Below the pieces are notes generated by a model, which saw nothing but the letters and a program-made list of their open reading frames with translations, did no database searches and was not told the DNA's origin. A stretch of DNA of 64,000 nt, taken from positions 64,001-128,000 of the forward strand of contig CAWKDB010000004.1 in assembly GCA_963848295.1 (NCBI GenBank), written 5' to 3'. The DNA is from an uncultured delta proteobacterium (GTDB taxonomy: Bacteria; Myxococcota_A; Polyangia; Haliangiales; Haliangiaceae). Below, piece after piece: positions 19,875-56,207 of the stretch. Position 1 is the stretch's first letter, and each line of letters starts with the position of its first letter. A program made the translations under genes and the position numbers.

Positions 19875-19876
19875 CG

Positions 19877-20104
19877 CTAGGCCACCGCGCAAGGATCGCG
19901 GGATGCGTTGCCGCACCACACCGCGCCGTCGATGCGCAATCGGATCGCGAGCCCTCGGTCGACGTAGGCCACCCTGGACGGCGAGCGAGCCGAGTAGCAG
20001 CGCGTCCACGCTCCACGCTCGACTTCTTGCAACGTGATTTCGCGCGCGCTCGCGACGTCGAGCCGCTCGAACACGATGACCAACCCTAGGTGACCGAGCT
20101 CCAA
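19877..20104 (-). CDS. Small hypothetical protein, 75 aa
   Basis: Fills the space between the sigma54 motif and the GT2 ATG (stop 2 nt before it); TTG start; no recognisable motif. Confidence 0.35.
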   Translation of the reverse strand: MELGHLGLVIVFERLDVASAREITLQEVERGAWTRCYSARSPSRVAYVDRGLAIRLRIDGAVWCGNASRDPCAVA

Positions 20105-20119
20105 TGTAGTCGCCGTTAC

Positions 20120-20135
20120 AGCACGCTCTGTGCCA
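20120..20135 (-). promoter_or_regulatory. sigma54 promoter for the GT2-GH1 unit
   Basis: Minus strand TGGCACAGAGCGTGCT (TGGCAC-N5-GTGC). Confidence 0.7.
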
Positions 20136-20183
20136 ACGGCGGGCTACGGAACCCGGGTGGTTGCGGAGGCCCGAGCGCGTCGA

Positions 20184-20202
20184 GTCTTGCAGATCGCAAG
20201 AC
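20184..20202. promoter_or_regulatory. Candidate enhancer (UAS) palindrome
   Basis: GTCTTGC-AGATC-GCAAGAC perfect 7-bp arms about 50 nt upstream of the -24 element. Confidence 0.6.
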
Positions 20203-20205
20203 CGC

Positions 20206-21551
<1,346 letters not shown>

Positions 21552-21555
<4 letters not shown>

Positions 21556-23579: not shown

Positions 23580-23728
23580 CAGCGAGCCACTAGATGTACC
23601 ACTCTCGCGGCTTTCGCCCCTCTCGCGGTTTGCGAGGGTGGTCTTGCATTTTGCGTCGGTCGGCTACGTGGTGTGCGTGAACGCTCGCTTCGCCGTGGTC
23701 GACCGCCGTGTTCGATCGGGCGGAATGC

Positions 23729-37758: not shown

Positions 37759-37772
37759 TATCTATCGAATAT
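37736..37772 (+). promoter_or_regulatory. sigma70-type leaderless promoter overlaid with 10-bp-spaced GATATC repeats
   Basis: TTGACT-N17-TATCTA-N6-ATG; GATATC at 37747 and 37757, GAATAT at 37767. Confidence 0.65.
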
Positions 37773-38205
37773 GTCCAGACGAGCTCCAGCGGCGCCCGAG
37801 GGCGCGCTCTACGTCCGCTTGCCCGCTGCCGCGGTCGACAAGCTCGACCGGGCATCCGAGGTGCTCGGCGTCCACAAGAAGGATCTGATCGCCGGGTTGG
37901 TCGCGAAATATATCGATCCCGACACGAAGCGCGGCCTGTCTGCGCTCGGGGCGCTCGCTCAACCGCGGCGAGTCACCGTCGAGCTGGGCGACTCCGCGCC
38001 GACGCTCGGGGCGTACTCGTTCCATCCGTACGATCCGCCCGAGGTGATGAACGCCGTGCAGACCGCCGAGCTGCTCCAGCTCGCCGACAAGGTGGTGATC
38101 GAGCTCGCCGAGGCGGGCAGACTGCCCGGCCGCAAGATGGGGAGCGAGTGGCGATTCTCTCGCGCGGCCGTGATCGCCTGGCTCGCGGGCCCCGAGAAGC
38201 GGTGA
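37771..38205 (+). CDS. DNA-binding protein: ribbon-helix-helix-like N-terminus plus excisionase-type HTH C-terminus
   Basis: [24 protein letters not shown] (RHH pattern); [29 protein letters not shown] (HTH_17/Xis). Confidence 0.8.
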
Positions 38206-38831
38206 TGGGATATTCATCGCATATGTCGAGGTTGCTCGTGCCGACCGTGGTCGAGCAAAGCCAGCGCGGCGAGCGCGGCTGGGACATCTTCTCGCGCCTG
38301 CTCAAGGACCGCGTCATCTTCCTCGGCACCGAGATCGATGACGACGTCGCGAACGTGGTGATCGCGCAGCTGCTGTTCCTCGACTCCGAGGACTCGGCCA
38401 ACGACATCATGATGTACGTCAACTCGCCCGGCGGCTCGGTGTCCGCGGGGCTCGCGATCTACGACACGATGCAATTCCTACACTGCGACGTGTCGACGTA
38501 CTGCATGGGCCAAGCAGCATCGATGGGCAGCTTCCTGCTCGCCGCCGGCTCGCCGGGCAAACGCTATGCGTTGCCGCACGCCCGCGTGATGATCCACCAG
38601 CCGCTCGCCGGTGTCCGCGGCCAGGCGAGCGACATCGCGATCCACGCGCGCGAGGTCTTGAACGCGCGCGCGACGCTGAACGAGCTGCTCGCGAGGCACA
38701 CCGGTCACTCGATCGCGGCGATCCGGCGCGACACCGAGCGCGACAACTTCATGTCCGCGGCCGAGGCGAAGGACTACGGTCTGATCGACGAAGTGCTGAC
38801 TCGGCCGAAGTCGTACGCCGGGGCGCCGTAG
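38205..38831 (+). CDS. clpP: ATP-dependent Clp protease proteolytic subunit
   Basis: [21 protein letters not shown] (Ser), MIHQP (His), ERDNFM (Asp); start 38205 (TGATG) or 38223. Confidence 0.95.
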
Positions 38832-41829: not shown

Positions 41830-42942
41830 ATGCGAGCGATCTCGTACGCGATCGCGCTATGCGCGGGTTGCTCGTTCACCGAGCCGGCCGGCGCCATCGA
41901 TGCGCCGCGACCGCCGATCGACGCGCCGAGGTTCGATGCGCCACCGGTCGACGCGATGTTGGGCCCGTGCACGGGCACGCTGGTCGGCACCGGCTTTCAG
42001 ATCTGCCTGCTCGAGCCGCCGACGCAGATGCTGATGGTCCCGGCCGGGACGATCGCGACCGAGACCTCGGCGGCGTGCGCGCCGGCATCGGCCTACACGT
42101 CTTCACCCGACGTCTGCCTCCTGCTCGGCACCTCGGTGAACATCCCGATGAACGTCGTCGCGACGGGCCGGCGGCCGCTCGCGATCGTCGCGACCAATGG
42201 CGCCGTGATGATCGGCGGCGCCGGCGGGGTCGACGTGTCGAGCCACGACGCCGTGCTCGGTGCCGGCACCCGGTCGACGTGCCCGGGCGGCACGGCGCCG
42301 GACAGCGGCGGCGGCACCTCGGGTGGCGGGTTCGCGGGAAGCTACGGCGGCGTCGGCGGCGACGGCGGCCGAGGCGCGAGCGGCGGCAACGGCGGGATCG
42401 CGGCGACGCCGGGAGGATTCACGCGGGTCGAAGGCGGATGCCCCGGTGGACCCGGTGCCGGCACGGGCGCGGGAGCCGGTGGCGCGGGTGGCGGTGCGGT
42501 GTGGATCATCGCGACCACGAAGATCCAGATCGATGGCTCGATCGACGCGTCGGGTGGCGCGGGCGGCGGCTCGACGAGAGGCGATAACGCCGGCGGCGGT
42601 GGCGCCGGTGCCGGCGGCCTGATCGGGCTCGACGCACCGCAGCTGATGGGCACCGGCAACGTGTTCGCGAACGGCGGCGGAGGCGGCGAAGGGTGCGGCA
42701 GCGCCACCGACGGCAACCCGGGCGGAGTCTCACTGGGCCCGACCATGGCCGCGCTCGGCGGAACCGGCGGCGGCAACGGCGGCGACGGCGGCGGCGGATC
42801 GTCCGGCGCGACCCTGTTCGGGGTGAACGGCTTCGACGGTACCGGCGGTGACGGCGGCGGCGGTGGCGGTGGCGGCGCCGGTGTCGTGTGGGTGCGAACC
42901 GGCGTCGCGGGCTCAGAAAACTTCGCGCCTCCTCCAAGCTGA
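41830..42942 (+). CDS. Glycine-rich lipoprotein
   Basis: MRAISYAIALCAGC lipobox, IDAP repeats, GGGAGG-rich repeats with short beta segments; TAAAGT 6 nt upstream. Confidence 0.8.
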   Translation: MRAISYAIALCAGCSFTEPAGAIDAPRPPIDAPRFDAPPVDAMLGPCTGTLVGTGFQICLLEPPTQMLMVPAGTIATETSAACAPASAYTSSPDVCLLLGTSVNIPMNVVATGRRPLAIVATNGAVMIGGAGGVDVSSHDAVLGAGTRSTCPGGTAPDSGGGTSGGGFAGSYGGVGGDGGRGASGGNGGIAATPGGFTRVEGGCPGGPGAGTGAGAGGAGGGAVWIIATTKIQIDGSIDASGGAGGGSTRGDNAGGGGAGAGGLIGLDAPQLMGTGNVFANGGGGGEGCGSATDGNPGGVSLGPTMAALGGTGGGNGGDGGGGSSGATLFGVNGFDGTGGDGGGGGGGGAGVVWVRTGVAGSENFAPPPS

Positions 42943-43179: not shown

Positions 43180-43755
43180 GTGCTCGACGACGCGCTGCCC
43201 GCCGCCGTGAAGACATGGCTCGGCGCGCTGGTCCTGACCGACAAGACGGCGTTGCTCGCCGCGTTCTCCGGTGCGGCGCGCGCGCTCGGCAAGGCGGCGA
43301 TCCCGATCATCGGGCGCGGCACGTGGGGCAGCGACGAGCTCGGTCGCGCCGCGCTGCTCGTGCGTGCGTTCCCGCTGCTGCAACCCGCCGAGCTGTGGGC
43401 GCACGGCGACAATCGCGAGCGTCAGGCCGTGCTCAAGGCGTTGCCGCTGTTGCCCGAGCCCGCGCAGTTCGTGGCGCTCGCGATCGAAGCGTGTCGCGCG
43501 AACGTGCTCACCGTGTTCGAAGCGATCGCCTGTGACAACCCGTACCCGGCCGAGCACTTCCCCGAGCTCGCGTTCAATCAGCTCGTGCTGAAGGCCGCGT
43601 TCAACGACTTCGCGCTCGCCCGGATCATCGGCCTCGGCGCGCGGCGCAACGCCGAGCTCGCGCGGATGGCCACGGACTTCGCGGCCGAACGTCGCGCCGC
43701 CGGTCGGCCGGTGCCCGCCGATCTCGATCTCGCGATAAAGGGAGCCGCTCCATGA
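43180..43755 (+). CDS. eboA: EboA-like protein
   Basis: GDNRERQAVLKALPLL, F.AIACDNPYPAEHF..FNQLVLKA.F, ERRAAGRPVP. Confidence 0.85.
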   Translation: MLDDALPAAVKTWLGALVLTDKTALLAAFSGAARALGKAAIPIIGRGTWGSDELGRAALLVRAFPLLQPAELWAHGDNRERQAVLKALPLLPEPAQFVALAIEACRANVLTVFEAIACDNPYPAEHFPELAFNQLVLKAAFNDFALARIIGLGARRNAELARMATDFAAERRAAGRPVPADLDLAIKGAAP

Positions 43756-44633
43756 AGCTATTCGATCCGCACATCCACATGACGAGCCGGACGACCGACG
43801 ACTACGAAGCGATGGCCGCCGCCGGCATTCGCGCGATCGTCGAGCCCGCGTTCTGGCTCGGCCAGCCGCGCACGCACGTCGGCACGTTCGACGACTACTT
43901 CCAGGCGCTGGTCGGCTGGGAGCGGTTTCGCGCGAGCCAGTTCGGCATCGCCCACTTCTGCACCATCGGGCTCAATCCGAAAGAAGCGAACAACCCGGCG
44001 GTCGCCGATGGCGTGCTCGAGCTGTGCGCGCACTACCTCGGCAAGGATGGCGTCGTCGCGGTCGGCGAGATCGGCTATGACGATCAGACCGCGGCGGAAG
44101 ACAAATACTTCGCCGCGCAGATCGAGCTCGCCCGCAAGTTCGACCTGCCGGTGCTGATCCACACGCCGCATCGCGACAAGAAGCGCGGCACCGAGCGCAC
44201 GATCGCGGCGGTGCGCGAGCAGAGCTTCCCCGAGGAGCGCGTGCTGATCGACCACAATAATGAAGAGACGCTGCCGCTCGTGCTCGCGACCGGTTGCTGG
44301 GCCGGCCATTCGATCTACCCGAACACGAAGATGGACGAGCCGCGGATGGCGGCGCTGGTCAAGAAGTACGGAGCGTCGCGGATCATCGTGAACAGCGCGG
44401 CCGACTGGGGCGTGAGCGATCCGCTCAAGGTGCCGAAGACGGTCGCGGCGATGCGCGCGGCCGGGATCGGTGAACGCGAGATCGAAACGATCGTGTGGGC
44501 GAACCCGATCGCGTTCTTCGGTCAGACCGGGCGGCTCGCCGCGAGCGATCTCGAAGCACCCGCGCGCTTCGACCAGGCCGAGCTGTTCGAAGGCAACTCG
44601 GTCTTGCGTGGCCAATCGGCGCGGAAGTCTTGA
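43752..44633 (+). CDS. eboB: EboB, TatD-family metal-dependent hydrolase
   Basis: DPHIHMTSRTTDDY, EPAFWLGQPRT, LNPKEAN, HTPHRDK, NSAADWG.SDPL.VPKT. Confidence 0.9.
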   Translation: MKLFDPHIHMTSRTTDDYEAMAAAGIRAIVEPAFWLGQPRTHVGTFDDYFQALVGWERFRASQFGIAHFCTIGLNPKEANNPAVADGVLELCAHYLGKDGVVAVGEIGYDDQTAAEDKYFAAQIELARKFDLPVLIHTPHRDKKRGTERTIAAVREQSFPEERVLIDHNNEETLPLVLATGCWAGHSIYPNTKMDEPRMAALVKKYGASRIIVNSAADWGVSDPLKVPKTVAAMRAAGIGEREIETIVWANPIAFFGQTGRLAASDLEAPARFDQAELFEGNSVLRGQSARKS

Positions 44634-44651
44634 TGTAACTTCGTACATCAA
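44630..44651. repeat. Perfect 8-bp inverted repeat at the eboB stop
   Basis: TTGATGTA-ACTTCG-TACATCAA. Confidence 0.7.
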
Positions 44652-44738
44652 CCGTTGTCGCCGCCGCCTGATCGAGCCGGCGATTCGAGTTGCCGGCTGC
44701 CGCGGTTTCAACTTCCCGTAGTTGCGTTCACACGCGCG

Positions 44739-44754
44739 CGGCACGTGCTTTGCG
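44739..44754 (+). promoter_or_regulatory. Putative sigma54 promoter
   Basis: CGGCACGTGCTTTGCG (GG-N10-GC with TTGC). Confidence 0.68.
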
Positions 44755-44832
44755 TTCGGCGTGCGCATCATGCGCAGCTTGTTTCACTTATTCCTGCGAC
44801 GAACCGACACGTCGGTGCGTCTGGACGAGGCC

Positions 44833-47655
44833 ATGACCTCGCCTCTTCGCGCTTCGCTCTATCTCGGCGGCCTGTCTGCGGTGCTCGCGAGTTGCACCGG
44901 CACCGCGCCGCCTCCGCCGATCACGACCGTCGACTGCGTCGCCGACAAGTGCGACGGCACCGCGGTCGTGCCGGGTGTCGCCGAGCAGCGGGTGTTCCCG
45001 AACCTGACGTTCAACTTTCCGGTCCAGATGGTGTTCTCGCCGTCGGACAACCATCGTGCGTTCGTCGTCGAGCACAGCGGCACGGTGCGCACGTTCGACG
45101 TGACGTCCGCGAATTCCGCCGACATCGCACTCGATATCTCGAACCGCGTCCACATGGATCCGCCGCCGCACAGCGAAGCGGGCCTGAACGCGATCGCGAT
45201 CGATCCGACCGCGAACGTGATGTACGTCACCTACGACGCGATCAGCCCCGACGATCCGAACAACGCGTTGCGCATGCGCTGGCGGTTGTCGCGGTTCACG
45301 AGCAGCGACGGCAAGTCGTTCGATGCAAACAGCGAGCAGATCCTGATCGAGATGGACAAGAACGCCGACGAGCACAACGCGGGGATGCTCGCGTTCGGCC
45401 AGGACGGCTTCCTCTACGTCTCGGTCGGCGACGGCGGTCCGTCGTTCGATCCGAACTCGTTCGGTCAGAACACGTTCGCGCTCTACGGCAAGATGTTGCG
45501 GCTCGACGTCCACACGACCGCGGCCGACCCGACCGATCCGGTCAAAGGCCCCGACCTGTTTCGGTTTCGCGCGGCGGCGGGTGGCGGTCGCGTGCTGATC
45601 GATCACGACACGACGGACGGCAACGGGACGCGCACGCTGCCATACGGCATCCCGAGCGACAACCCGTTCTCGGATGGCTCGAGCGGTCGCCCGGAGGTCT
45701 ACGCATACGGTCTGCGCAACCCGTGGCGCTGGAGCTTCGACGCCGACGGCACGCTGTGGGAAGGCGACGTCGGCCAAGACGCGTACGAGGAGATCAATCA
45801 GATCACGAAGGGCGGCAACTTCGGTTGGGGCGTGCTCGAAGCCAATCACTGCGCGCCGGGCCACAACCCGTGCCCGCTCGATGGCGCGATCGCTCCGATC
45901 ACCGAGATCCAGCACGGCCCGACGATGAACGCGGTGATCGGCGGCTACAAGTATCGCGGCACCGCGATGCCGCTGCTCGTCGGCGACTACGTGTTCGCGA
46001 ACTTCTCGCCCGGCACGATCTACGGCGTGTTCGACGAGAACGGTACGCAAGCGCCCGAGGTCCTCGGCGGCTTGCCGCAATCGATCTCTGGCATGGCCGA
46101 GGATCCGGACGGCGAGCTCTACGTCATGGATCTGCTCAAGGGCGGCATCTACGAGCTCGTCGCGGGCCCGACGCACTCCGCGACCGGCCAGGCGCCGCCG
46201 TACAAGTTCCTGATGCGCGCCGGCATCGGCACCGACGCAGGTGCGCGCGCATACTACGCCTCGATCATCCCGAACCTCGATCCGACGACGCTGACGATCA
46301 ACGGCGCGCCGTTCACCGAGCAGCAATGGGAAGCGCAGACGTTCGGCTCGCTGCCGACCGTCGCGGGCTACTACCAGAACGCGCTCGACCTCGGGTTCTG
46401 GCGCGACATGGTGTGCACGACGACGATCACGCCGGGCAGCGGCGGTTGCCGCGTTCGCAACTATCGCAACGAGGCCGACAAGAACCCGGCGCTCACCGGC
46501 AACCTCGGTACGGTGACGATGGACGTCAGCCCTCAGGGCTTCACGCGGTTCTACGTGTTCGGCCCGGACAGCACGCTCAGCCCGTTCGCGGTGCTCGACG
46601 ACGAAGGCAAGAAGTTCGTGCCCGAGTTGTGCACGACGTGTCACGCCGGCAAGTACACCGGCGCCGGCTCGAGCCCAGATCTCGGCTCGATGTTCCGCGA
46701 GTTCGAGCCGCGGTCCGACGAGTTCGTCGCGGTCTCTCCGGACCCCGGCAACCTGGCGCCGGTGCTGGTCGAGGAGTCGGACTTGACGCGCGATCAAGCC
46801 GAGGAGCAGTGGGCCGCGCTCAACGACGCCGCGCACGCCGCGAACGCTTCGATCCACACCGAAGCGCAGGGCGCGCCGGTCGGCACCGATCACGCGGTCG
46901 CCGCGACGAACGCGTACATCGAGGCGCTCTACTCGGGGCGCAACCCGGTCGTCGTCCGGCCACCGGACGACCCGGCGCTCATGCCGGAGTCGTGGGGCCC
47001 CCGCACCGGCGAAGACGCCACGCTGGTCGCGACCAAAGCGACGACGTGGGTCCAGCTGTCCTCGCGCTACTGCATGGGCTGCCATCGCTCGAACGCGCTC
47101 GACTTCGCCGATTACGCGAACTTCCAGGCGCTGTCGTCGACGCTCGGCACCGAATCGGTGCTCGACCACTACATGATCGACGACCGGAACGACCCGACCC
47201 GCGCGACGACGCTGTACATGCCGCAGGCCGAGCTCGCGTTCAATCGGTTGCAGCAAGACGTGTCGACGCGCTTCGACTCGGACGACTGGGCGAACCAGGC
47301 GAATTCGCCGACCGTGCCGGTGACCGAGCTCAGCATCGAGGTCGACGGTGCGGCGTTCACGTCGCCTGGCCAAGACGTGTGGATCACCGGCAACATCTCG
47401 CAGCTCGGCAACTGGAATCCCGCGGGCGGCGTGCTGCTGCAGGGAACGCCGATCAACGGGCAATGGACCGGCGTGTGGAAGGGCTCGGTCGTCGTGCCGC
47501 AAGGCATGAACATCCAGTGGAAGGCGACGATCCTCGACAACAGCGGCAAGACCCTGCAATGGGAGCCCGATCTGCCGACGAACAGCCATAACCGCGAATT
47601 CAGCGTGCCGTCGGCCGACGCGTCGAGCGTCACCGTGACCTGGGGGCAGCCATGA
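44833..47655 (+). CDS. Lipoprotein: glucose/sorbosone (PQQ-type) dehydrogenase propeller + two CxxCH heme motifs + CBM20, 940 aa
   Basis: GAGG SD and VLASC lipobox; HNAG.LAFG.DG.LY..GDGG, IP.DNPF, YGLRNPWR.SFD, DVGQ..EEI..GGNFGW; CTTCH at 46630 and CMGCH at 47071; C-terminal GQDVWITGN..QLGNWNP..W..QWK..WE..NR. Confidence 0.85.
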   Translation: MTSPLRASLYLGGLSAVLASCTGTAPPPPITTVDCVADKCDGTAVVPGVAEQRVFPNLTFNFPVQMVFSPSDNHRAFVVEHSGTVRTFDVTSANSADIALDISNRVHMDPPPHSEAGLNAIAIDPTANVMYVTYDAISPDDPNNALRMRWRLSRFTSSDGKSFDANSEQILIEMDKNADEHNAGMLAFGQDGFLYVSVGDGGPSFDPNSFGQNTFALYGKMLRLDVHTTAADPTDPVKGPDLFRFRAAAGGGRVLIDHDTTDGNGTRTLPYGIPSDNPFSDGSSGRPEVYAYGLRNPWRWSFDADGTLWEGDVGQDAYEEINQITKGGNFGWGVLEANHCAPGHNPCPLDGAIAPITEIQHGPTMNAVIGGYKYRGTAMPLLVGDYVFANFSPGTIYGVFDENGTQAPEVLGGLPQSISGMAEDPDGELYVMDLLKGGIYELVAGPTHSATGQAPPYKFLMRAGIGTDAGARAYYASIIPNLDPTTLTINGAPFTEQQWEAQTFGSLPTVAGYYQNALDLGFWRDMVCTTTITPGSGGCRVRNYRNEADKNPALTGNLGTVTMDVSPQGFTRFYVFGPDSTLSPFAVLDDEGKKFVPELCTTCHAGKYTGAGSSPDLGSMFREFEPRSDEFVAVSPDPGNLAPVLVEESDLTRDQAEEQWAALNDAAHAANASIHTEAQGAPVGTDHAVAATNAYIEALYSGRNPVVVRPPDDPALMPESWGPRTGEDATLVATKATTWVQLSSRYCMGCHRSNALDFADYANFQALSSTLGTESVLDHYMIDDRNDPTRATTLYMPQAELAFNRLQQDVSTRFDSDDWANQANSPTVPVTELSIEVDGAAFTSPGQDVWITGNISQLGNWNPAGGVLLQGTPINGQWTGVWKGSVVVPQGMNIQWKATILDNSGKTLQWEPDLPTNSHNREFSVPSADASSVTVTWGQP

Positions 47656-47693
47656 CCCGCGCGGCGACCGCGATTTGCGGCGATACTCGACCG

Positions 47694-48863
47694 ATGACCG
47701 TATCGATCATCCAGCGCGTCGCTGTGATGGTCGAGTATCCGGTCGTGTTCACGCGCGGCGCGTTCGATCTCGCGAACCCCGTGCTCGCCGAGACGCTCGC
47801 GCGACGCGAGCCGGATCGCCGGCATCGGTTCGTCGCCGTGATCGATAGCGGCGTCGCGGCGCGGTGGCCGACGCTCGCCGCCGACATCGCGGCGTATGCG
47901 CGGCGCTACGAGCTCGAGCTCGCCGCGCCGCCGTGGGTGATCCCCGGTGGCGAGGACGCGAAGCGCGACGACGTGCTCGCGCAGCTGCATCGTGCGCTCG
48001 CCGGGCTGCGCATCGATCGTCACTCCTACGTGATCGCGATCGGCGGCGGCGCGATGCTCGACGTCGTCGGCTATGCGGCGGCGACGTTGCATCGCGGCGT
48101 TCGGCTCGTGCGGATGCCGACGACCGTGCTCGCGCAGAACGACGCGGGGGTCGGCGTCAAGAACGGGATCAACGCGTTCGGCGCGAAGAACTTCCTCGGC
48201 ACGTTCGCGGCGCCGTTCGCGGTGATCGACGACAGCGACTTCCTGGCGACGCTCGAGCCGCGCGATCGCATCGCAGGCATGGCGGAAGCGGTCAAGGTCG
48301 CGCTGATCCGCGACGCGGCGTTCTTTCGCTGGCTGGTCGACCACGCGGCCGAGCTCGCGGTGTTCGACACCGAGGCGGTCGAGTACATGATCCGGCGCTG
48401 CGCCGAGCTCCACCTCGCGCACATCGCGGGCGGCGGCGATCCGTTCGAGCAGGGCAACGCGCGTCCGCTCGATTTCGGCCATTGGTCGGCGCACAAGCTC
48501 GAGCTCATGTCGCACCACGCGCTTCGCCACGGCGAGGCGGTCGCGATCGGCATCGCGCTCGACAGCGCGTACTCGGCCGAGGCCGGCCTGCTCGCGCCCG
48601 CCGACTTCGACGCGATCGTGGGCCTGCTCGTCGCGCTCGGACTGCCGACCGCACATGCGCTGCTCCGTGACCCCGCGCTGCTCGAAGGGCTCGCCGAGTT
48701 CCGCGAGCACCTCGGCGGCGAGCTGTGCATCCCGTTGCTCGCCGGCATCGGCCAGGTCGTCGAGGCCAACGACCTCGCCGAGGCCACGCTCCGCCGCGCC
48801 ATCGAACGAATCACGCAGGCCGTTGCCGAAATCAACGCGCCTGTCTCTGCGGCGTCGGTCTAG
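47694..48863 (+). CDS. eboD: EboD, 3-dehydroquinate synthase-like sugar-phosphate cyclase
   Basis: IGGGAMLD, PTTVLAQND, KNG.N, RPLDFGHWSAHKLE, HGEAVAIG; ebo context; alternative start 47652. Confidence 0.88.
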   Translation: MTVSIIQRVAVMVEYPVVFTRGAFDLANPVLAETLARREPDRRHRFVAVIDSGVAARWPTLAADIAAYARRYELELAAPPWVIPGGEDAKRDDVLAQLHRALAGLRIDRHSYVIAIGGGAMLDVVGYAAATLHRGVRLVRMPTTVLAQNDAGVGVKNGINAFGAKNFLGTFAAPFAVIDDSDFLATLEPRDRIAGMAEAVKVALIRDAAFFRWLVDHAAELAVFDTEAVEYMIRRCAELHLAHIAGGGDPFEQGNARPLDFGHWSAHKLELMSHHALRHGEAVAIGIALDSAYSAEAGLLAPADFDAIVGLLVALGLPTAHALLRDPALLEGLAEFREHLGGELCIPLLAGIGQVVEANDLAEATLRRAIERITQAVAEINAPVSAASV

Positions 48864-48895
48864 CCGCCATTTCCTCGTTTTCAGGAGCGCGGCGA

Positions 48896-48911
48896 TGGCA
48901 CATCGCGTGCT
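48896..48911 (+). promoter_or_regulatory. Putative sigma54 promoter
   Basis: TGGCACATCGCGTGCT; conserved C is 18 nt before ATG 48928. Confidence 0.65.
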
Positions 48912-48927
48912 CCAAGCAGGTTCGCTC

Positions 48928-51924
48928 ATGCGTCTCTCCCCGTTGCTCGTCCTCTTGACCCTAGGCATCGCCGCGGGCGCCGCTCGCGCCGATACCGGCG
49001 TCGGGAACGCGTGGCACATCCCGACCGGCGCGGAGCCGGGGATCGCCACGATGCGCGGCCCGGTCCACGGCATCGTCGCCGGCACCGCGGTCAGCGTGTA
49101 CAGCGGCAATCAGTTTCAGGGTGCCGGCAACGCCGGCAACCAGCTCCAGACCGGCAGCGCGGTGATCTACAAGCACCTCGCCGACGCGAGCTGGACGAGC
49201 GCGCCGATGACGTTCGTCTCGCAGAGCGGCAACAACAAGTACTTCGTCGCGACGATCCCGGGCACCGCGCTGAGCTCGGGCGACGTCATCGAGTATTACC
49301 TGCAGATCGCGTACAGCGATCACGCGACGACGTTCCTGTTCGGCGGCGACGACGGCTCGCAGGCGACGCTCGACGAAGCGACCGCGCGAGCCGGCGCGTT
49401 CGCGTTCGGGGTCGAGTGGCCGCTCGCGCCGAGCGGTGACGCCGCCGAGGCCTCGAGCGGGGTGTGGCAGGCCAAGCTCTACACCGCGTCGGGCCACATC
49501 GGCCTCGTGCAAGCCCGCGGCACCGAGATCGATCTCGCGCCGCCGAGCGCGAAGCTCGCCGACAATTGGCTGCCGATCGGCGCCGTTGTCAACCAGTCGG
49601 CGCTCAGCGATGGCTTGCAGCTCGAGCAGACCTGGGGAACGCGCACGGTCACCGCGCAGCTCCGGTTCACGGCCGAAGGCGTACTGCACTACGAGGTCAC
49701 CGACTGGGGCGGCAGCGCGCCGACCGAGACCCAGATCGCGGCAGCGAGCACGAGCGACGAGCACTTCTACGGCTTCGGCGAGAAGTTCGACGGCCTCGAT
49801 CAAGCCGGCAAGTCGGTCCACATCTTGACGACGGATCATCCGGGCGCGAAGGGCGATAACTCGTACGCGGTCGCGCCGTGGTTCATCAGCAGCCACGGCT
49901 ATGGCTTTCAGCTCGACTCGACCGCCGAGGCGCAGCTCGACATGCGAGCCTCCGCCGCCGATCGGTTCACCGCGCATCTGTCGTTCGGCAAGCTCGCGAT
50001 CAACCTCGTCGGTGGCCCGGCGCCGCGCGACGTGCTGACGCGCTACACCGGCTACGCCGGTCGAGCCGCGTTGCCGCCGGCGTGGGCGTTCGGCCCGTGG
50101 ATCTCGTCGGACGTCTGGCACGACGGCGGCGAGGTTCGCTACGTCGTGACCAAGGAGCTCCAGCTCGGCATTCCCGCGTCGGTGTTCGTGTTCGATTCGC
50201 CGTGGGAGCTCGCCTACAACGACTTTCAATGGAACATGACGCAGTTCTCGGCGGGCGGGACGTTCGAAGGTCAGGCGTACGCCGGGTTCGCGTCGGCCGC
50301 CGACATGCTCGCGTTCCTGCGCGCGAGTGGTCTGCGCGTCGTCGTGTGGCTCACGCCGTTCGTCGACACGTCGTCGTACGACGAAGGCATCGCGGGCGCG
50401 AACCTCGGCCAGGCCTCGACCTACGATGCGGCTGCGAGCAACGGCTTCTTCGTGCGATCGAGCCCCGGCGGCGCGCCGCTCGTCACGACGTGGTGGAAGG
50501 GCGTGGGCAGCCCGGTCGACTTCACGAACCCGGCGGCGGCGTCGTGGTTCACGCAGCAGCTCCAGCAGGTGGTCAGCGACAGCAACGGCACGATCGGCGG
50601 GTTCAAGACCGACGACGGCGAAGCCGACTACATCCCGCTGACCGCGAGCTACGCCGACGGCCGTACCGGCGTCGAGATGAAGAACGGGTTTTGCGTCGAA
50701 TATCTCAAGGCGGTGTGGAACGTGCTCGGCAGCGACGGCCTGGTGTTCGCGCGCAGCGGCTTCACCGGCACGCAGGCGTATCCCGGCATGTGGGCCGGCG
50801 ACAACGAGCCGAACTTCGGCACCGACAACGGCTTGCCGACCGTCGTGTCGGCCGGGATGTCGGCGGCGATGTCGGGCTACGCGATCTGGGGCAGCGATAT
50901 CGGCGGCTATCAAGACGTCAACCCGAGCTCGACGCCCGAAGATCTGTTCATGCGCTGGACCCAGTTCGGCGCGCTGTCGCCGGTGATGCAGATGCATCGC
51001 CAAGTCACCGCGGGCAAGCAGTATCCGTGGAGCTACGGCGACGCGGCGCTCGCGAACTTCAAGGCCTACGCGCAGCTGCACACGACGCTGTTCCCGTATC
51101 TATATTCCGCTGCGAAGCAAGCGACGGTCGACGGCATCCCGGTGATGCAGCCGCTACCGCTGGTCGCCCCTGGCGATGCGACCGCTGCGACGATCGGCGA
51201 CGAGTACATGCTCGGCGATGCGCTGCTCGTCGCGCCGGTGATCACGCAGAGCGTGACGACGCGCTCGGTGTATCTGCCGGCGGGCGGTTGGTTCGATTTC
51301 TGGACGAACGCCCACGTCGATGGCGGCCAGACCGTCACGTGGACCGGCACCGACTCGACGCAGACGCCGATCTACGTCAAGGACGGCGGTATCGTCACGC
51401 GGCTGCCGCCCGGTGTGCAGTCGCTCAACGATGCGACCTATGTCGGTAATGCGGCGATCGCGACGAGCGACGGCTCGCTCGACTTTCTGGTGTACCCGGC
51501 TGGCAGCTCCGAGGCGACGCTGTACGACGGCACGACGCTGACGTCGAACGCGAGTGACAGCACGACGACGCTGACGCTGACCGGTGGGACTCGTGGCGTG
51601 ACGTTCGAGGTCTACTCCTCGGCGCATCCCACCGGCGTGCTGCGCGATGGCGCGACGCTGCCCGAGGTTGCGCCCGGAGCGCTCGTCGCCGATTCGTGGT
51701 CCTATGACGGCACGTTCGTGAACATCGCGCTGTCGAGCGCGACGACGACGACGCTCGTGCTCGACGGCACCGCGGGCCCTGGCAAGGGCGACGGCGACGA
51801 CTCGGCGACGACACCGGGCGGATGCGGCGGATGCGCGACCGGCGGCAGCGGCGGTGCGGGTTGGCTCGCGCTCGTCGCGGTGGTCGCGGGCTCGCTCCGA
51901 CGGCGCCGGCGGCGTAACGTCTGA
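48928..51924 (+). CDS. Secreted GH31 alpha-glycosidase with N-terminal beta-sandwich and MYXO-CTERM-type tail, 998 aa
   Basis: Signal peptide; FYGFGEKF, FKTDDGE nucleophile, WAGDN acid/base, WGSDIGG, RWTQFG, YMLGDALLVAP; GGCGGC + hydrophobic helix + RRRRRR tail. Confidence 0.9.
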   Translation: MRLSPLLVLLTLGIAAGAARADTGVGNAWHIPTGAEPGIATMRGPVHGIVAGTAVSVYSGNQFQGAGNAGNQLQTGSAVIYKHLADASWTSAPMTFVSQSGNNKYFVATIPGTALSSGDVIEYYLQIAYSDHATTFLFGGDDGSQATLDEATARAGAFAFGVEWPLAPSGDAAEASSGVWQAKLYTASGHIGLVQARGTEIDLAPPSAKLADNWLPIGAVVNQSALSDGLQLEQTWGTRTVTAQLRFTAEGVLHYEVTDWGGSAPTETQIAAASTSDEHFYGFGEKFDGLDQAGKSVHILTTDHPGAKGDNSYAVAPWFISSHGYGFQLDSTAEAQLDMRASAADRFTAHLSFGKLAINLVGGPAPRDVLTRYTGYAGRAALPPAWAFGPWISSDVWHDGGEVRYVVTKELQLGIPASVFVFDSPWELAYNDFQWNMTQFSAGGTFEGQAYAGFASAADMLAFLRASGLRVVVWLTPFVDTSSYDEGIAGANLGQASTYDAAASNGFFVRSSPGGAPLVTTWWKGVGSPVDFTNPAAASWFTQQLQQVVSDSNGTIGGFKTDDGEADYIPLTASYADGRTGVEMKNGFCVEYLKAVWNVLGSDGLVFARSGFTGTQAYPGMWAGDNEPNFGTDNGLPTVVSAGMSAAMSGYAIWGSDIGGYQDVNPSSTPEDLFMRWTQFGALSPVMQMHRQVTAGKQYPWSYGDAALANFKAYAQLHTTLFPYLYSAAKQATVDGIPVMQPLPLVAPGDATAATIGDEYMLGDALLVAPVITQSVTTRSVYLPAGGWFDFWTNAHVDGGQTVTWTGTDSTQTPIYVKDGGIVTRLPPGVQSLNDATYVGNAAIATSDGSLDFLVYPAGSSEATLYDGTTLTSNASDSTTTLTLTGGTRGVTFEVYSSAHPTGVLRDGATLPEVAPGALVADSWSYDGTFVNIALSSATTTTLVLDGTAGPGKGDGDDSATTPGGCGGCATGGSGGAGWLALVAVVAGSLRRRRRRNV

Positions 51925-51926
51925 GC

Positions 51927-53045
51927 ATGCAGCTCGCGTCGTCCGACGGTCGGGTCGCCGAGCTCGGGTATTGCTACAACGTGCTGCCGGGCGAGAGCGT
52001 CGCGGCGCTCGTCGACCAGCTCCGGCGGATCTGCGGCCCGGTCCGCGCGCGGCTCGGCGTCGCCCGGCTCGGGGTGGGGTTGTGGATCGCGCGCGATGCC
52101 GCGACCGAGCTCGTCCGCGATCCAACGGCGCGGCGTCGGCTCGCGAGCGCGCTCGCCGCGGAGCAGCTGTACTGCTTCACGCTCAACGGTTTTCCATACG
52201 GCGGGTTTCACGCGCCGCGGGTCAAGGAGCAGGTGTTCGAGCCGAGCTGGGCGCAACCGGCGCGGGTCGACTACACGCTCGATCTCGCGCTGATCCTCGC
52301 CGAGTTGCTGCCCGATGACGTCGAGGCCGGCTCGATCTCGACCGTGCCGATCGGTTCGGCGCAGACCGATCGCGCGGCGGCTCGCGACGGCCTGGCGCGC
52401 GCCGCCGACGGGCTCGAAGCGATCGCGCGACGCACGGGGCGGCGGATCGAGCTCGCGGTCGAGCCCGAGCCCGGTGCTGGCTTCGAGCGCGCGACCGAGC
52501 TCGCGACGTATCTGCGCGGCTCGAGCATCGCCGTGTGCTTCGACTGCTGTCACGCCGCAGTGGTCGGTGAGGATCCCGCGACGGCGTTGCACGCCATGGC
52601 TGATGCGGGCGTGCGCTGCGCGAAGATCCAGATCTCGAGCGCGCTGGTCGCTCGCGAGCCAGAGCGCGAGGCGCCGGCGCTCGCCGCACTCGCCGAGCCG
52701 CGTTACTTCCATCAAGTGCGCAGCGATCGCGGCGGCGCGATGGATCTACCCGACGCGCTCGCCACGCTCGATCGCGGCTCGCCGTGGCGCATCCACTTCC
52801 ACGTACCGGTGCATCGCGCCGAGCTCGCCGGGTTCGCGACGACCCGCGAGGCGATCGCGCCGGTGCTCGCCGCGGCGCTCGCGATGCCGGGGCCGTTGCC
52901 GCACCTCGAGGTCGAGACGTACACGTGGGGCGTGCTTCCGACCGCGGATCGCGCGACCGGCGATGGCGCGCTCGTCGACGGCATCGCGCACGAGCTGCGC
53001 TGGGCGATCGCGGAGCTCGCGACACATGGGGTGCACCCGCGATGA
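51927..53045 (+). CDS. eboE: EboE, xylose-isomerase-like TIM barrel
   Basis: YC.NV.PGE, TLNGFPYGGFH..VKEQV, GSISTVP, EPEPG, RYFHQ, WRIHFHVP, HLEVETYTW. Confidence 0.9.
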   Translation: MQLASSDGRVAELGYCYNVLPGESVAALVDQLRRICGPVRARLGVARLGVGLWIARDAATELVRDPTARRRLASALAAEQLYCFTLNGFPYGGFHAPRVKEQVFEPSWAQPARVDYTLDLALILAELLPDDVEAGSISTVPIGSAQTDRAAARDGLARAADGLEAIARRTGRRIELAVEPEPGAGFERATELATYLRGSSIAVCFDCCHAAVVGEDPATALHAMADAGVRCAKIQISSALVAREPEREAPALAALAEPRYFHQVRSDRGGAMDLPDALATLDRGSPWRIHFHVPVHRAELAGFATTREAIAPVLAAALAMPGPLPHLEVETYTWGVLPTADRATGDGALVDGIAHELRWAIAELATHGVHPR

Positions 53046-54403
53046 CCAAGCTCGCGATCATCGACATCGTCGGGCTGACCCCGAAGCTGCTCGCGCACAT
53101 GCCGCGCGTTGCCGCGGTCGCGACCGGCGGGTTTCGCGCCGAGCTCGGCACGGTGCTGCCCGCGGTGACTTGCTCGGTGCAGTCGACACTGCTGACCGGG
53201 ACGCTGCCGCGCGATCACGGCGTCGTCGGCAACGGCTGGTTGTTTCGCGATCAGTCCGAGATCTGGTTGTGGCGCCAGTCGAACAAGCTCGTCGCCGGCG
53301 AAAAACTATGGGACGCCGCGCGCCGCGTGCTCGGGCGCGACGTGACCTGCGCGAACCTGTGCTGGTGGTACGCGATGGGCTCGACCGCCGACATCGCGGT
53401 GACGCCGCGGCCGGTCTACTACGCCGATGGCCGCAAGGCGCCGGGCGCGTACACCCAGCCGGCGAGCGTCGGCGCGGATCTGGTCAAGCACCTCGGCGAG
53501 TTCCCGCTGTTTCAGTTTTGGGGCCCGGGCGCGGGCCTGGCGTCGTCGGCGTGGATCGCCGCCGCGGCGCGCCGCGTGTTCGATGCGCACCATCCCGACC
53601 TCTCGCTCGTCTACCTGCCGCACCTCGACTACGACTTGCAGCGCTATGGCTCGAGCGGACCGGAGGCGATTCGCGCGGCGATCGAGCTCGATGTCGTCGC
53701 CGGCGAGCTGATCGATTACTTTCGCGCGCGAGACGTCACGGTCGTCGTGTTGTCGGAGTACGGCATCACCGACGTCGCGCGGCCGGTCCACGTCAACCGC
53801 CGGTTGCGCGAAGCGGGCCTGCTCGACGTCGCGTGGAACGACGCGGGCGAATTGCTCGATACGTTCACCTCCCGCGCGTTCGCGGTCGCCGATCATCAAG
53901 TCGCCCATGTCTATACGTCGGACCCGGACGCGACGGCCGCCGCCCGCGCCGCGCTCGCCGATCTCCCGGGCATCGCCGAGATCCTCGACGACGACGGCAA
54001 GCGCGCCGCCGGGCTCGATCATCCGCGCGCCGGCGAGCTCGTGCTCGTCGCCGAGCCCGACGCGTGGTTCACGTACTACTACTGGCTCGACGATCTCCGC
54101 GCGCCCGACTTCGCGCCGACCGTCGAGATCCATCGCAAGCCTGGGTACGATCCGGCCGAGCTGCTGTTCGCCGATGGCAAGGCGAAGGCGCGCGCGGTGT
54201 TGCGGCTCGCACAGAAGGCGCTCGGCTTTCGCTACGTGATGGACGTCATCCCGATCGACGGCGATCGCGTCCGCGGCTCGCACGGCCGGATCCCGGCGAC
54301 GCCCGACGACGGCCCGGTCCTGCTGTGCAGCGATCCGCGGTTCGCGCGCGCGAAGCTCGACGCGACCGACGTGATGGAGCTCGCGCTCGATCTGATGCGC
54401 TGA
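53042..54403 (+). CDS. eboF: EboF, alkaline phosphatase/nucleotide pyrophosphatase superfamily
   Basis: DIVGLT, PAVTCSVQS, HGVVGNGW, YLPHLDYDLQR, SEYGI, DHQVAH, IHRKPGYDP, GSHG. Confidence 0.9.
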   Translation: MTKLAIIDIVGLTPKLLAHMPRVAAVATGGFRAELGTVLPAVTCSVQSTLLTGTLPRDHGVVGNGWLFRDQSEIWLWRQSNKLVAGEKLWDAARRVLGRDVTCANLCWWYAMGSTADIAVTPRPVYYADGRKAPGAYTQPASVGADLVKHLGEFPLFQFWGPGAGLASSAWIAAAARRVFDAHHPDLSLVYLPHLDYDLQRYGSSGPEAIRAAIELDVVAGELIDYFRARDVTVVVLSEYGITDVARPVHVNRRLREAGLLDVAWNDAGELLDTFTSRAFAVADHQVAHVYTSDPDATAAARAALADLPGIAEILDDDGKRAAGLDHPRAGELVLVAEPDAWFTYYYWLDDLRAPDFAPTVEIHRKPGYDPAELLFADGKAKARAVLRLAQKALGFRYVMDVIPIDGDRVRGSHGRIPATPDDGPVLLCSDPRFARAKLDATDVMELALDLMR

Positions 54404-54408
54404 GCGCG

Positions 54409-55293
54409 TCAGGTCGGCGAGAAGAACTGCTTGAGCAACAGCGCTGGAAACACGAGCAACGCGACGGTCAGCGCCCAGAACGGCTCGCCGGCGACGGCGC
54501 AGACCGCCGCGTCGATCACCGGGATCAGCATGATGCCGCCGCCGATCGCGCGCCCGGTCGACCGGCCGTCGTGGCGATACCACACCGGCGACCAGTTCAG
54601 CCAACCGAGCGCGAGCGCGAGCGCGATCCACGGCCACGCCCAGCGCGTCGCGGGAATGCCCGGCGCGGTGACCAGCGCGATCACGACGGTGATCGCGAGC
54701 ACCGCGAGGAACGCGAGCCCGGTCCGCGCCCGCCGCCTCGTGTTGCCGTCGACCTCGTCGCGCGCGATGTACGTCAAGCCGGTCACGTAGAGCGCGAGCA
54801 CGATCGGGCCGGCGAGCGCGATCGGCGGCCACGCGGCGGACAGCGACAGCCCGGTCGAGATCGCGAGCGCGAGATCCAGCCCGCGGCACGCGCCCATGAC
54901 GAGCGGACCGATCGGCGTTGCCTTCGCGCCGGCGTCGTAGACCAGGATGCACGCGGCCAGCACGACCGCGAGCGTGCCGGGTGCGCGGCCGATCCACGCC
55001 GCGATCAGGATGCCGGCGGCCATGAGGCCCGCGCCGAGCAGCGCCGCGGTCGCGACCGAGACCGCGCCGCTCGGGATCGGCCGGGTCGGACGCTCGCGGG
55101 CGTCGATCTCGCGATCGAGCACGTCGTTGAGCACGATGCCGGCGAGGTACAGGCAGCCCGACGCGAGCAGGATCGCGCAACCGCGGTCCGGCACCGCGAT
55201 GCCGAGCGCGAGCAACACGACCAGACCGGCGAGCGCATCGGCGAACGCGGTGAACAGGTTTGGCGGGCGAAGCAAGGCGAGCAAGCTCGTCAT
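54409..55293 (-). CDS. eboC: EboC-like UbiA family prenyltransferase
   Basis: RPPNLFTA.AD, LNDVLDREIDARERPTRPIPSG, YD..K, MGACRG; TGATG overlap with the upstream gene. Confidence 0.85.
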   Translation of the reverse strand: MTSLLALLRPPNLFTAFADALAGLVVLLALGIAVPDRGCAILLASGCLYLAGIVLNDVLDREIDARERPTRPIPSGAVSVATAALLGAGLMAAGILIAAWIGRAPGTLAVVLAACILVYDAGAKATPIGPLVMGACRGLDLALAISTGLSLSAAWPPIALAGPIVLALYVTGLTYIARDEVDGNTRRRARTGLAFLAVLAITVVIALVTAPGIPATRWAWPWIALALALGWLNWSPVWYRHDGRSTGRAIGGGIMLIPVIDAAVCAVAGEPFWALTVALLVFPALLLKQFFSPT

Positions 55294-56207
55294 CACGGCT
55301 TCTTCGCCGGCGCTGCCGCCTCGTCCTGAAGCGACGCCGGCAACGGAGGCAGCTCGTTGATCGCCGGCAACAGCACGATCTCGATGCGGCGGTTCTTCTG
55401 CCGTCCGTCCGCGGTGGTGTTCGCCGCGATCGGATCATGCTCGCCGACGCCCGCGGGGATCAGGTTCTTCGCGTCCATGCCGGCGGTCACCAGCACGCGC
55501 GTCACGGTCAGCGCGCGCTCGGTCGACAGCTCCCAGTTGTCCTTCGGCACGCACGCGGCCGCCGCGGCGTCGTTCGCCTTCGGCTTCGCGAAGTCTTGAT
55601 TGTCGGTGTGGCCGACGACGAGGAACCGGCGATCCGCGAACTTCTTCAGCACCGCCGCGACCTCGACGACGGCGTACTCGCCCTGCTTCGACAGCACGCT
55701 CGATCCCGAAGGGAACAGGACCTCGGACGGCAGCGATACGACCAGCGCACCGCGCCGCGCCACGACGCGCAGCTGACCGGTATCGATCATCTTCGCGAAC
55801 TGCTTCTGGATGTCGTCGATCGCGGCCATCCGCTTGTCGGCCTCGGCTTTCTGCGCGCGGAGCTGGGTCAGCTCGTCCTTCGTCGCGTTGAAGTTCTTCG
55901 CGAGATCACCGCTCTGACTCTCGAGCCCGCTCGCCTTGCTCGTCTCGGTCGCGAGCGCGGTCTTGCACTCGCTCGCTTGCTTCGCGGCCGTCGCGCTCTG
56001 GGCTTGCGCGCTCGTCAGACTCTTCGCGCATTCGCCTTGGTCGTCGGCGGCCTGGTGCGCGGCCTGGCGGTAAGTCCATGCGAAGTAGCCGCCGGCACCC
56101 GCGGCGCCGGTGACGATGATCGCGTAGAGCCAGAGCCGCCACGGGAACCGGCGGGGCGGTTTGGCGAACCTGTCGGTAGCGGGTACGGCGGGCGGACGTT
56201 GGGCCAT
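55293..56207 (-). CDS. MotB/OmpA-family peptidoglycan-binding protein (TM + coiled coil + OmpA C-terminal domain)
   Basis: VLFPSGS, VVGHTDN, NWELSTERA, NRRIEI; AGGAGG SD. Confidence 0.88.
   Translation of the reverse strand: MAQRPPAVPATDRFAKPPRRFPWRLWLYAIIVTGAAGAGGYFAWTYRQAAHQAADDQGECAKSLTSAQAQSATAAKQASECKTALATETSKASGLESQSGDLAKNFNATKDELTQLRAQKAEADKRMAAIDDIQKQFAKMIDTGQLRVVARRGALVVSLPSEVLFPSGSSVLSKQGEYAVVEVAAVLKKFADRRFLVVGHTDNQDFAKPKANDAAAAACVPKDNWELSTERALTVTRVLVTAGMDAKNLIPAGVGEHDPIAANTTADGRQKNRRIEIVLLPAINELPPLPASLQDEAAAPAKKP

Follow-up and report, generated by a model that had tools for sequence, protein, structure and literature searches.

What does a protein do when one chain combines a sugar-dehydrogenase-like propeller with two heme-attachment motifs and a domain for binding starch? 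The question is raised by one gene in a 64,000-nucleotide stretch of DNA from an uncultured delta proteobacterium (the window). For the oxidative attack on polysaccharides, we know of no protein partner that is established in bacteria. We tentatively favor the reading that the protein is an alpha-glucan-targeted dehydrogenase using scavenged PQQ, the main rival being a PQQ-less propeller with a working heme module. If the favored reading is true, the protein would be to bacteria and starch what the AA12/CDH enzymes are to fungi, and maltodextrin sensors based on direct electron transfer could be built on it as a candidate.

A predicted lipoprotein with three modules in fixed order

The open reading frame at 44833-47655 (+) is free of stops and translates into 940 amino acids. 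A purine-rich stretch, GGACGAGG, precedes the ATG at 44833, and GC3 along the gene, counted from 44872 onward, is 0.86-0.94. An alternative upstream TTG start (44722) is ruled out by homologue N-termini and by the purine-rich stretch before 44833. The gene comprises the following features.

44833..47655, + strand: whole gene, a 940-residue predicted lipoprotein (propeller, diheme module and CBM20)
44833..44895, + strand: predicted signal peptide II with lipobox L-A-S-C21
44965..46173, + strand: six-bladed GSDH/HHIP-like beta-propeller, residues 45-447
46180..47310, + strand: unnamed diheme module, residues 450-826, with a beta-sheet half ending in the first CxxCH and a helical half holding the second CxxCH and Met-Pro
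46630..46644, + strand: heme-attachment motif 1, C600-T-T-C603-H604, conserved in 162/162 module proteins
47071..47085, + strand: heme-attachment motif 2, C747-M-G-C750-H751, conserved in 160/162, the remaining 2 being gaps
47218..47223, + strand: M796-P797, by its spacing the likely sixth ligand of heme 2, 159/162
47320..47646, + strand: CBM20 starch-binding domain with site-1 residues W861, K897 and W910

An earlier note, made from the DNA letters, had described a lipobox, two heme motifs in the central region and a C-terminal CBM20, all of which we recovered. L-A-S-C21 is present, with C21 at least 90% conserved across 34 homologues and a lipobox-like Cys, by a loose pattern, in 38 of 49 full-architecture proteins. 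The CTTCH and CMGCH motifs lie at 600-604 and 747-751, and none of 20,000 shuffles of the protein sequence gave two CxxCH. Pfam matched GSDH (E 1.1e-33) and CBM_20 at 837-933 (E 1.3e-15), with Cytochrom_C matching only below cut-off. All 49 retrieved proteins with the three parts have them in the order propeller, module, CBM20, down to 28% identity. The modules, their fixed order and the residues that are conserved or lost are seen directly in the sequences.

Two homologues (P0004 and P0016) bear the source name 'Glutamate synthase large chain', which we rejected because their Pfam matches are GSDH and CBM20 only. In an Atlas search, three clusters without a name scored 0.95-0.96, and none of the named families reached 0.9. 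The full-length structure model has a pTM of 0.53, and a complex prediction of propeller (45-447), module (450-826), two hemes and Ca scored 0.00 and is not counted as evidence.

The CBM20 domain scores 57.4 bits against a gathering threshold of 23.3, and its PDB matches are maltotetraohydrolase, glucoamylase and CGTase. In motif and spacing, W861 (kept in 34/34), K897 (34/34) and W910 (31/34) match the CBM20 site-1 residues W543, K578 and W590 named in passages of PMC9069913. Predicted binding of starch or another alpha-glucan through this domain is strongly supported.

The propeller retains half of the usual PQQ site

The propeller motifs had been called full. The GSDH propeller itself is confirmed (PF07995, E 1e-33; Foldseek to 1c9u, E 4.5e-18), but the fullness is not: the positions of sGDH K377, R406 and R408 are occupied by S392, S417 and S419, and TIGR03606 scores 53.8 bits, below its curated cut-off of 434.55. 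By alignment, H181, R295, N296 and G314 correspond to sGDH H144, R228, N229 and G247, and all 42 propellers keep them, while E320 (sGDH E253), which we take to belong with Gly247 to the calcium region, is kept in 38/42. Neither K377 nor R408 is kept in any of the 42, R406 persists in three, with Lys in two more, and a Trp (W298) next to R295-N296 replaces sGDH Q231 in all 42. Published work assigns R408 and K377 of sGDH to PQQ binding. The usual cofactor site is half intact, so enzyme activity is unproven.

Both by sequence and by fold, the closest solved structure is HHIP. In our tree the propeller falls among the HHIP-like 'RNPW' propellers, and sGDH/YliI occupy a separate branch (support 100/100), both of these reference rows being long branches. 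Such 'RNPW' propellers are routinely annotated as PQQ sugar dehydrogenases, and under either main reading this one protein bears on whether they bind PQQ at all. Stand-alone propellers from the same genomes keep the His/Arg/Asn set in 10/10 rows (9 distinct), which marks it as a subfamily trait and not as proof of catalysis here. The metal motifs NERD, NGRD and HGRD do not occur in the 940-residue translation.

We found pqqC in 0/5 carrier genomes (73-94% complete) versus 8/147 order genomes over cut-off, and four of the five carriers gave no long 8-bladed PQQ enzyme match. The carrier G047 holds two long 8-bladed PQQ-family matches and no pqqC, which makes PQQ scavenging plausible in this genus. 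The earlier interpretation of a PQQ-dependent, starch-binding quinohemoprotein therefore divides: conservation gives good support to alpha-glucan binding and to two c-hemes, whereas PQQ dependence faces a half-missing site, an HHIP-like grouping and the lack of pqqC in the five carriers.

If the protein is an alpha-glucan dehydrogenase, the predicted membrane-anchored lipoprotein would likely bind starch or glycogen through CBM20, and the His/Arg/Asn site would likely oxidize the reducing ends of alpha-glucan sugars. The propeller would have to rely on scavenged PQQ and bind it in an unusual manner, electrons would pass to the two predicted c-hemes, and a neighboring GH31 may supply or remodel malto-oligosaccharides. 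Judged from sequence, the case for sugar oxidation, PQQ use and this electron route is weak to moderate. Precedents point both ways: passages on AA12 enzymes describe tight PQQ binding despite several missing sGDH PQQ residues (PMC4133262, PMC6881789), and another report describes a GSDH-like portion of TERTU_3803 that neither bound PQQ in ITC nor oxidized glucose (PMC10916295).

The latter precedent, the loss of all three basic PQQ anchors and the failure to find pqqC speak for the main rival. Here the propeller would be a PQQ-free sugar-binding part or scaffold, and the diheme module would do the work. Its heme 1, P460/c'-beta-like and in an open, polar pocket, would bind or turn over a small ligand such as peroxide or NO and be connected to a heme 2 with His/Met ligands, and CBM20 would place the whole on alpha-glucan. 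We consider this a real possibility, if a doubtful one; it leaves the invariant propeller His/Arg/Asn without explanation, and its other evidence comes from the module.

The diheme module is the newest part of the finding

The central module, about 375 residues long, spans 488 clusters and has no Pfam family; under either main reading, the same protein bears on the role of that family. Attachment of two c-hemes at the CxxCH sites is a strongly supported prediction. The features by which a c-type cytochrome is recognized, namely conserved CxxCH in an exported (lipobox) protein and maturation genes in the genome, are both present, the latter as three cytochrome c assembly (PF01578) matches, one with a WGxxWxWD-type motif. 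M796-P797 presumably follows the class I cytochrome c pattern, and His/Met ligation of heme 2 is moderately supported.

The module's fold is predicted with confidence (pLDDT 93), and its matches to known structures are weak. PDB sequence searches with the module gave nothing significant, Pfam on 28 module members gave only CxxCH matches, all below cut-off, and Foldseek gave no match at E<=0.001, the highest-probability row being 7ead (0.51). In a wide fold search of 48,161 chains, the top 5 were all cytochrome P460 or c'-beta, covering some 100-116 residues in the first half of the module, and the matches listed included no MauG, SoxA, TsdA, peroxidase or class I cytochrome. This ranking, with 7ead, favors a PQQ-free propeller with a working heme module; against it, the structural likeness is weak (Z 2.8-4.0, less than the 7-8 that the tool gives as its chance range; rmsd 3.5-4.8 A), PF16694 (P460) was matched by 0/28 module members, and hhalign against 28 P460-family domains gave a probability of 10-29% on CxxCH only and <1% once this was masked. 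With P460/c'-beta the module may share a beta-sheet followed by CxxCH; unlike those monoheme proteins of about 135-160 residues, it adds a second CxxCH and Met-Pro. Sections of a P460/c'-beta review describe very low sequence similarity even among members of the superfamily, and the words 'diheme' and 'fused' do not occur in those sections.

Of the 162 module proteins, 157-162 keep N516, R524, N543, D589 and K594, a conservation that seems to exceed the needs of an electron-transfer heme and is consistent with a working heme 1, although M563 (159/162) or M526 (151/162) could occupy its sixth site. The hemes had earlier been read as a simple electron relay. Two heme motifs are there, but a relay fits less well with the weak P460/c'-beta likeness of the first half and with a module that mostly occurs without a dehydrogenase: both propeller and CBM20 are missing from 103/162 module proteins, and in 4 more CBM20 is present but the propeller is not. 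This distribution, too, favors a PQQ-free propeller. Other fusion partners are lysyl-oxidase-like, Kelch and PA14 domains; the first carry HxHxH, Lys and Tyr motifs, which we take to be functional motifs of lysyl oxidase, and fusion to them is as expected of a plug-in redox partner. A search of the protein's own genome for a module paralogue gave one marginal match, at E 0.003, and no other.

On a bolder and unlikely reading, the module would be an undescribed diheme enzyme class in which a P460/c'-beta-like heme, set in a conserved polar pocket, is connected to a second heme with His/Met ligands, bolted onto unrelated oxidase-type domains (GSDH propellers, lysyl-oxidase-like, Kelch) and carbohydrate binders, and here forming a starch-tethered redox enzyme without free PQQ. 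If true, this would also give the large HHIP-like propeller subfamily a function.

In the way that MauG works, the diheme module might install or regenerate in the domain fused to it a quinone other than PQQ, perhaps one derived from the protein, the propeller then oxidizing sugar without free PQQ. That would account for the lost carboxylate anchors and missing pqqC alongside the kept His/Arg/Asn, and it agrees with the invariant W298 beside R295-N296 and with lysyl-oxidase-like and Kelch propeller domains among the other partners. We nevertheless find it very unlikely, as the same Trp stands in 10/10 stand-alone propeller rows without the module and the fold matches listed include no MauG or peroxidase chain.

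Comparison with known systems

Coprinopsis cinerea pyranose dehydrogenase (AA8-AA12-CBM1) likewise carries a six-bladed propeller, a heme domain and a polysaccharide-binding module on one secreted chain and conserves the catalytic His, with a PQQ site unlike that of sGDH. It differs in being fungal, with one b-type heme and a cellulose-binding CBM1, and in our fold search AA12 chains (E 2e-10 to 2e-8) rank under HHIP, sGDH and Asd (4e-21 to 3e-14). Acinetobacter sGDH and E. coli YliI/Asd share fold and Pfam family with the candidate, including equivalents of H144, R228, N229, G247 and E253, but the candidate lacks those of K377, R406, R408 and Q231, and sGDH/Asd lack fused hemes or a CBM. HHIP, which matches best in both sequence and structure, is likewise without several of the PQQ-binding residues, and in the alignment has His-Asp where the candidate keeps Arg-Asn. 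Passages of a preprint on bacterial AA12-like PQQ propellers (bioRxiv 10.64898/2026.07.10.737718) place these beside or fused to c-type cytochromes and in carbohydrate gene clusters; they are defined there by nine AA12 residues and the NERD/NGRD/HGRD motifs, and the candidate is without these motifs.

Further bacterial designs, from PMC10916295, are Teredinibacter turnerae TERTU_3803 and Cellvibrio japonicus Cbp2D, both secreted, with several domains that include CBMs and c-type hemes; the likeness of TERTU_3803 extends, by annotation, to a glucose/sorbosone dehydrogenase-like part. They carry CBM2/CBM10, not CBM20, and heme domains named X183/X132. The earlier statement that no characterized bacterial counterpart was known holds for alpha-glucan, since literature searches found no alpha-glucan-targeted hemoprotein dehydrogenase, but not more broadly, the cellulose-binding TERTU_3803 having been tested and found PQQ-negative (PMC10916295).

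Their common design of CBM plus c-hemes, and the slow reduction of an LPMO by an X183 domain described in the same sections (PMC10916295), suggest that the protein might work outside the cell, donating electrons to a polysaccharide monooxygenase or to some other acceptor at the surface. We give this little credence, because its own genome (85% complete) has no AA10 LPMO match and no CBM20 gene found other than the lipoprotein gene.

The gene lies within an ebo cluster and beside a GH31

The surroundings, absent from the earlier note, are an ebo cluster and a GH31 gene.

43180..43755, + strand: eboA (NF035938 over cut-off)
43752..44633, + strand: eboB (TatD-like)
47652..48863, + strand: eboD-like sugar phosphate cyclase, its start overlapping the lipoprotein gene stop
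48931..51924, + strand: secreted GH31 glycosidase with MYXO-CTERM; nearest solved relative, the cycloalternan-forming enzyme Lmo2446
51927..53045, + strand: eboE (NF035939 over cut-off)
53042..54403, + strand: eboF (phosphodiesterase/alkaline phosphatase family)
54409..55296, - strand: eboC UbiA-like prenyltransferase (best match NF035940, below its cut-off)

The lipoprotein gene is not one of eboA-F and is apparently an insertion within the cluster. Its position between eboB and eboD, with the stop overlapping the eboD start, recurs in G034, G101 and L041, and eboE is present in 5/5 carriers versus 34/147 order genomes, the carriers being kin and not independent. A preprint (bioRxiv 10.64898/2026.05.21.724671) leaves the oxidation that turns saccharoquinoline into thallusin without a known enzyme. 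These points would suit an enzyme that serves the ebo pathway in an accessory role, tailoring its product by oxidizing a cyclitol or quinoline, and not a starch enzyme. Such a role seems a slim prospect: in G047, whose ebo cluster is 68-85% identical, eboB, eboD and eboE are contiguous and the lipoprotein gene copy lies elsewhere; the gene is in 0/10 ebo regions retrieved from other genomes (one, G034, being a 3.6-kb contig); and CBM20 would be left without explanation. L042 and L044 link the lipoprotein gene to GH31 with no ebo genes, and a GH31 orthologue lies at most two genes away in 4/7 informative loci.

A predicted three-part lipoprotein and its family

Translation of the open reading frame gave a 940-residue protein and, together with the domain matches, bore out an earlier note's description of a lipoprotein carrying a propeller of the Pfam family GSDH, two CxxCH motifs and a CBM20. 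The gene and its start codon were backed by codon-position GC and a purine-rich stretch upstream, and none of 20,000 shuffles produced two CxxCH motifs by chance.

44833..47655, + strand: gene of the predicted lipoprotein (lipobox cysteine C21)
Residues 45-447: propeller (GSDH match, E 1e-33)
Residues 450-826: diheme module, with CxxCH motifs at residues 600 and 747
Residues 837-933: CBM20 (Pfam, E 1e-15)

A central-region query returned 57 proteins and a second query with the region alone returned 10; an exhaustive module search reached 488 clusters (E<=0.001), and 150 of these were drawn on. The resulting family set comprised the 162 of 200 proteins that cover at least 280 residues of the module, the other 38 being left out as partial. 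In this sample, which is skewed towards the query, the domain-architecture check proposed in the earlier note found propeller, module and CBM20 together in 49 proteins, in identical order in all 49 and at 28-100% identity to the query. Six further proteins combined propeller and module, four combined module and CBM20, and 103, some of them fragments, had neither propeller nor CBM20.

Within the host's order, module matches occurred in 26 of 147 genomes, two of which (the unpublished G037 and G038) contributed single weak rows each and carry no conclusion by themselves, and strong matches in five: the host genome (G000), G101, G034, G047 and G016, hereafter the carriers. The G016 protein, at 788 residues, stops after the module; two ORFs from its propeller-module gene in G016 lies an MbnB/TglH/ChrH-type RiPP modification enzyme (L035:1181-2491).

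The propeller and the PQQ question

The best PDB match of the propeller, by sequence as well as by fold, was HHIP, followed in the fold ranking closely by sGDH, then Asd and AA12, the fungal PQQ pyranose dehydrogenases. We aligned 42 family propellers with Acinetobacter baumannii sGDH and Escherichia coli YliI. The "full propeller motifs" of the earlier note proved only partly correct: equivalents of sGDH H144, R228, N229 and G247 were present in 42/42 and of E253 in 38/42, but those of K377 and R408 in none and of R406 in three, while the Q231 position was Trp throughout. In sGDH, K377 and R408 contact PQQ and H144 is catalytic, as described in PMC6881789. No conserved basic residue was found at the lost anchor positions in the family alignment. 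Loss of K377 and R408 is not fatal in principle, because AA12 is reported to bind PQQ at 1 nM through other residues (PMC4133262).

In a 28-row tree (16 of 55 fused propellers, 10 stand-alone rows and two references), fused and stand-alone "RNPW" propellers formed one group, separated from sGDH and YliI with 100/100 support, although each of the two references sits on a long branch, and the stand-alone proteins kept and lost the same residues as the fused ones. The only other GSDH-family gene in the host genome (L093; G000:C11:294607-295728) encodes a stand-alone predicted lipoprotein propeller of this type, likewise without K377, R406 and R408; G047 carries three such genes in tandem on contig C7.

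The biosynthesis gene pqqC was found in none of the five carriers and exceeded the cut-off in 8 of 147 order genomes; among carriers, only G047 had long matches to the 8-bladed PQQ family. For the nearest tested bacterial analogue, TERTU_3803 of Teredinibacter turnerae, PMC10916295 describes a GSDH-like portion that neither bound PQQ nor oxidised glucose. On these results we consider PQQ dependence of the propeller close to even. The main rival reading, in which the propeller works without PQQ and the diheme module is the active part, is possible if rather doubtful. That the diheme module itself makes a quinone appears quite improbable.

The diheme module

By sequence, residues 450-826 matched neither a Pfam family nor any protein in the PDB. 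A predicted structure from a 94-row alignment (pLDDT 93, pTM 0.91) has a beta-sheet half ending in the first CxxCH and a helical half holding the second. Across the 162 module proteins the first CxxCH was invariant, the second was present in 160 and M796-P797 in 159, and N516, R524, N543, M563, D589 and K594 each in 157-162. The Met-Pro pair, 45 residues past the second CxxCH, presumably indicates a His/Met heme.

Foldseek gave no significant match with the module. In a wide fold search the best five of 48,161 chains were all cytochrome c'-beta or P460, at chance-range scores (Z 4.0, 3.4, 3.4, 3.0 and 2.8; rmsd 3.5-4.8 A over 101-116 residues), and profile alignment with P460-family domains added nothing. 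Despite those scores, we regard five heme-c beta-sheet proteins heading the list as a real lead from the predicted model. Hemes of this superfamily are described as having a proximal His only and as binding gases or oxidising hydroxylamine, and Nitrosomonas europaea c'-beta as carrying a Met where the cross-link would be and an Arg that caps the site (PMC11928373); M563 and R524, invariant in the module, may be their counterparts. Of 301 genomes sampled from the phylum, 69 matched the P460-family profile PF16694, whereas the host genome gave no match.

Among 54 larger relatives scanned, module partners include GSDH, lysyl-oxidase-like, Kelch, PA14, CBM6, PKD/Ig and carboxypeptidase-regulatory domains; P0035 joins PA14, module and CBM20 without a dehydrogenase. 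HxHxH and downstream Lys/Tyr motifs were intact in five of the seven lysyl-oxidase-like partners among those listed. In P0029, P0032, P0033, P0036 and P0071 a lysyl-oxidase-like domain with intact-looking copper and quinone motifs precedes the module, followed by PKD and P-domains; this bacterial lysyl oxidase-diheme fusion merits study of its own.

Predicted starch binding and the proposed mechanism

The CBM20 was the only one found in the host genome (85% complete). Its W861 (34/34), K897 (34/34) and W910 (31/34) match site 1 of glucoamylase CBM20 by motif and spacing, as that site is described in PMC9069913, and binding of alpha-glucan through this domain is the best-supported functional inference.

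Our preferred reading, held tentatively, is a membrane-anchored lipoprotein targeted to alpha-glucan, whose propeller dehydrogenase would use PQQ scavenged from outside and pass electrons to the hemes of its own diheme module. By analogy it may work like an AA12/CDH-type modular redox protein: fungal AA12 and TERTU_3803 share the propeller, heme and CBM design, whereas by the membership test the protein falls outside sGDH/Asd. Bacterial PQQ propellers fused to hemes have been noted (bioRxiv 10.64898/2026.07.10.737718, 2026 preprint); searches of the open-access literature turned up neither a variant with CBM20 nor the present diheme module. The host genome carries cytochrome c assembly genes, and no AA10 LPMO was found in it at 85% completeness; that the protein donates electrons to an LPMO seems a very slim prospect.

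Genomic neighbourhood

43180..55296: complete ebo set, six genes, eboC on the opposite strand
48931..51924: secreted GH31 with MYXO-CTERM and an N-terminal domain of ~200 residues without a Pfam match

The local order is eboA-eboB-[gene]-eboD-[GH31]-eboE-eboF. With all six ebo genes present, the host, most likely a myxobacterium given the MYXO-CTERM of a neighbouring gene, therefore carries the genes that recent work links to thallusin/saccharoquinoline synthesis, for which a preprint leaves the oxidative step without an assigned enzyme (bioRxiv 10.64898/2026.05.21.724671, 2026). A tailoring role in that pathway would suit this position, and eboE occurs in 5/5 carriers versus 34/147 order genomes. 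The gene and GH31 nevertheless look like insertions, because the ebo cluster of G047 (68-85% identical) is uninterrupted and the gene was in none of 10 other ebo regions examined; we consider the tailoring role highly unlikely.

G034 reproduced the host order through GH31, as did the near-identical kin G101 and L041 up to their contig ends. At L042 and L044 a GH31 orthologue follows the gene immediately and ebo genes are absent, and in G047, G016 and L043 neither flanks it. GH31 is thus the more consistent partner (4/7 informative loci). Among solved relatives, the GH31 scored best against the cycloalternan-forming enzyme Lmo2446 (E 4e-74) and nearly as well against YicI, an alpha-xylosidase (E 8e-68), so any assignment of its substrate is tentative. 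Three further GH31 paralogues lie on contig C10.

Other genes in the window were as follows.

41830..42942: very Gly-rich predicted lipoprotein, 370 residues, just upstream of eboA, with no Pfam or NCBIfam match
37771..38831: small HTH_17 gene and, immediately after it, an ORF that looks ClpP-like by sequence inspection
13624..16920: a pair of fatty acid desaturase genes, one of which includes a cytochrome b5 domain, then a cyclopropane synthase-type methyltransferase
16910..23663, - strand: one run with a GH1 glycosidase, a cellulose-synthase-like GT2 and a sigma-54 two-component pair
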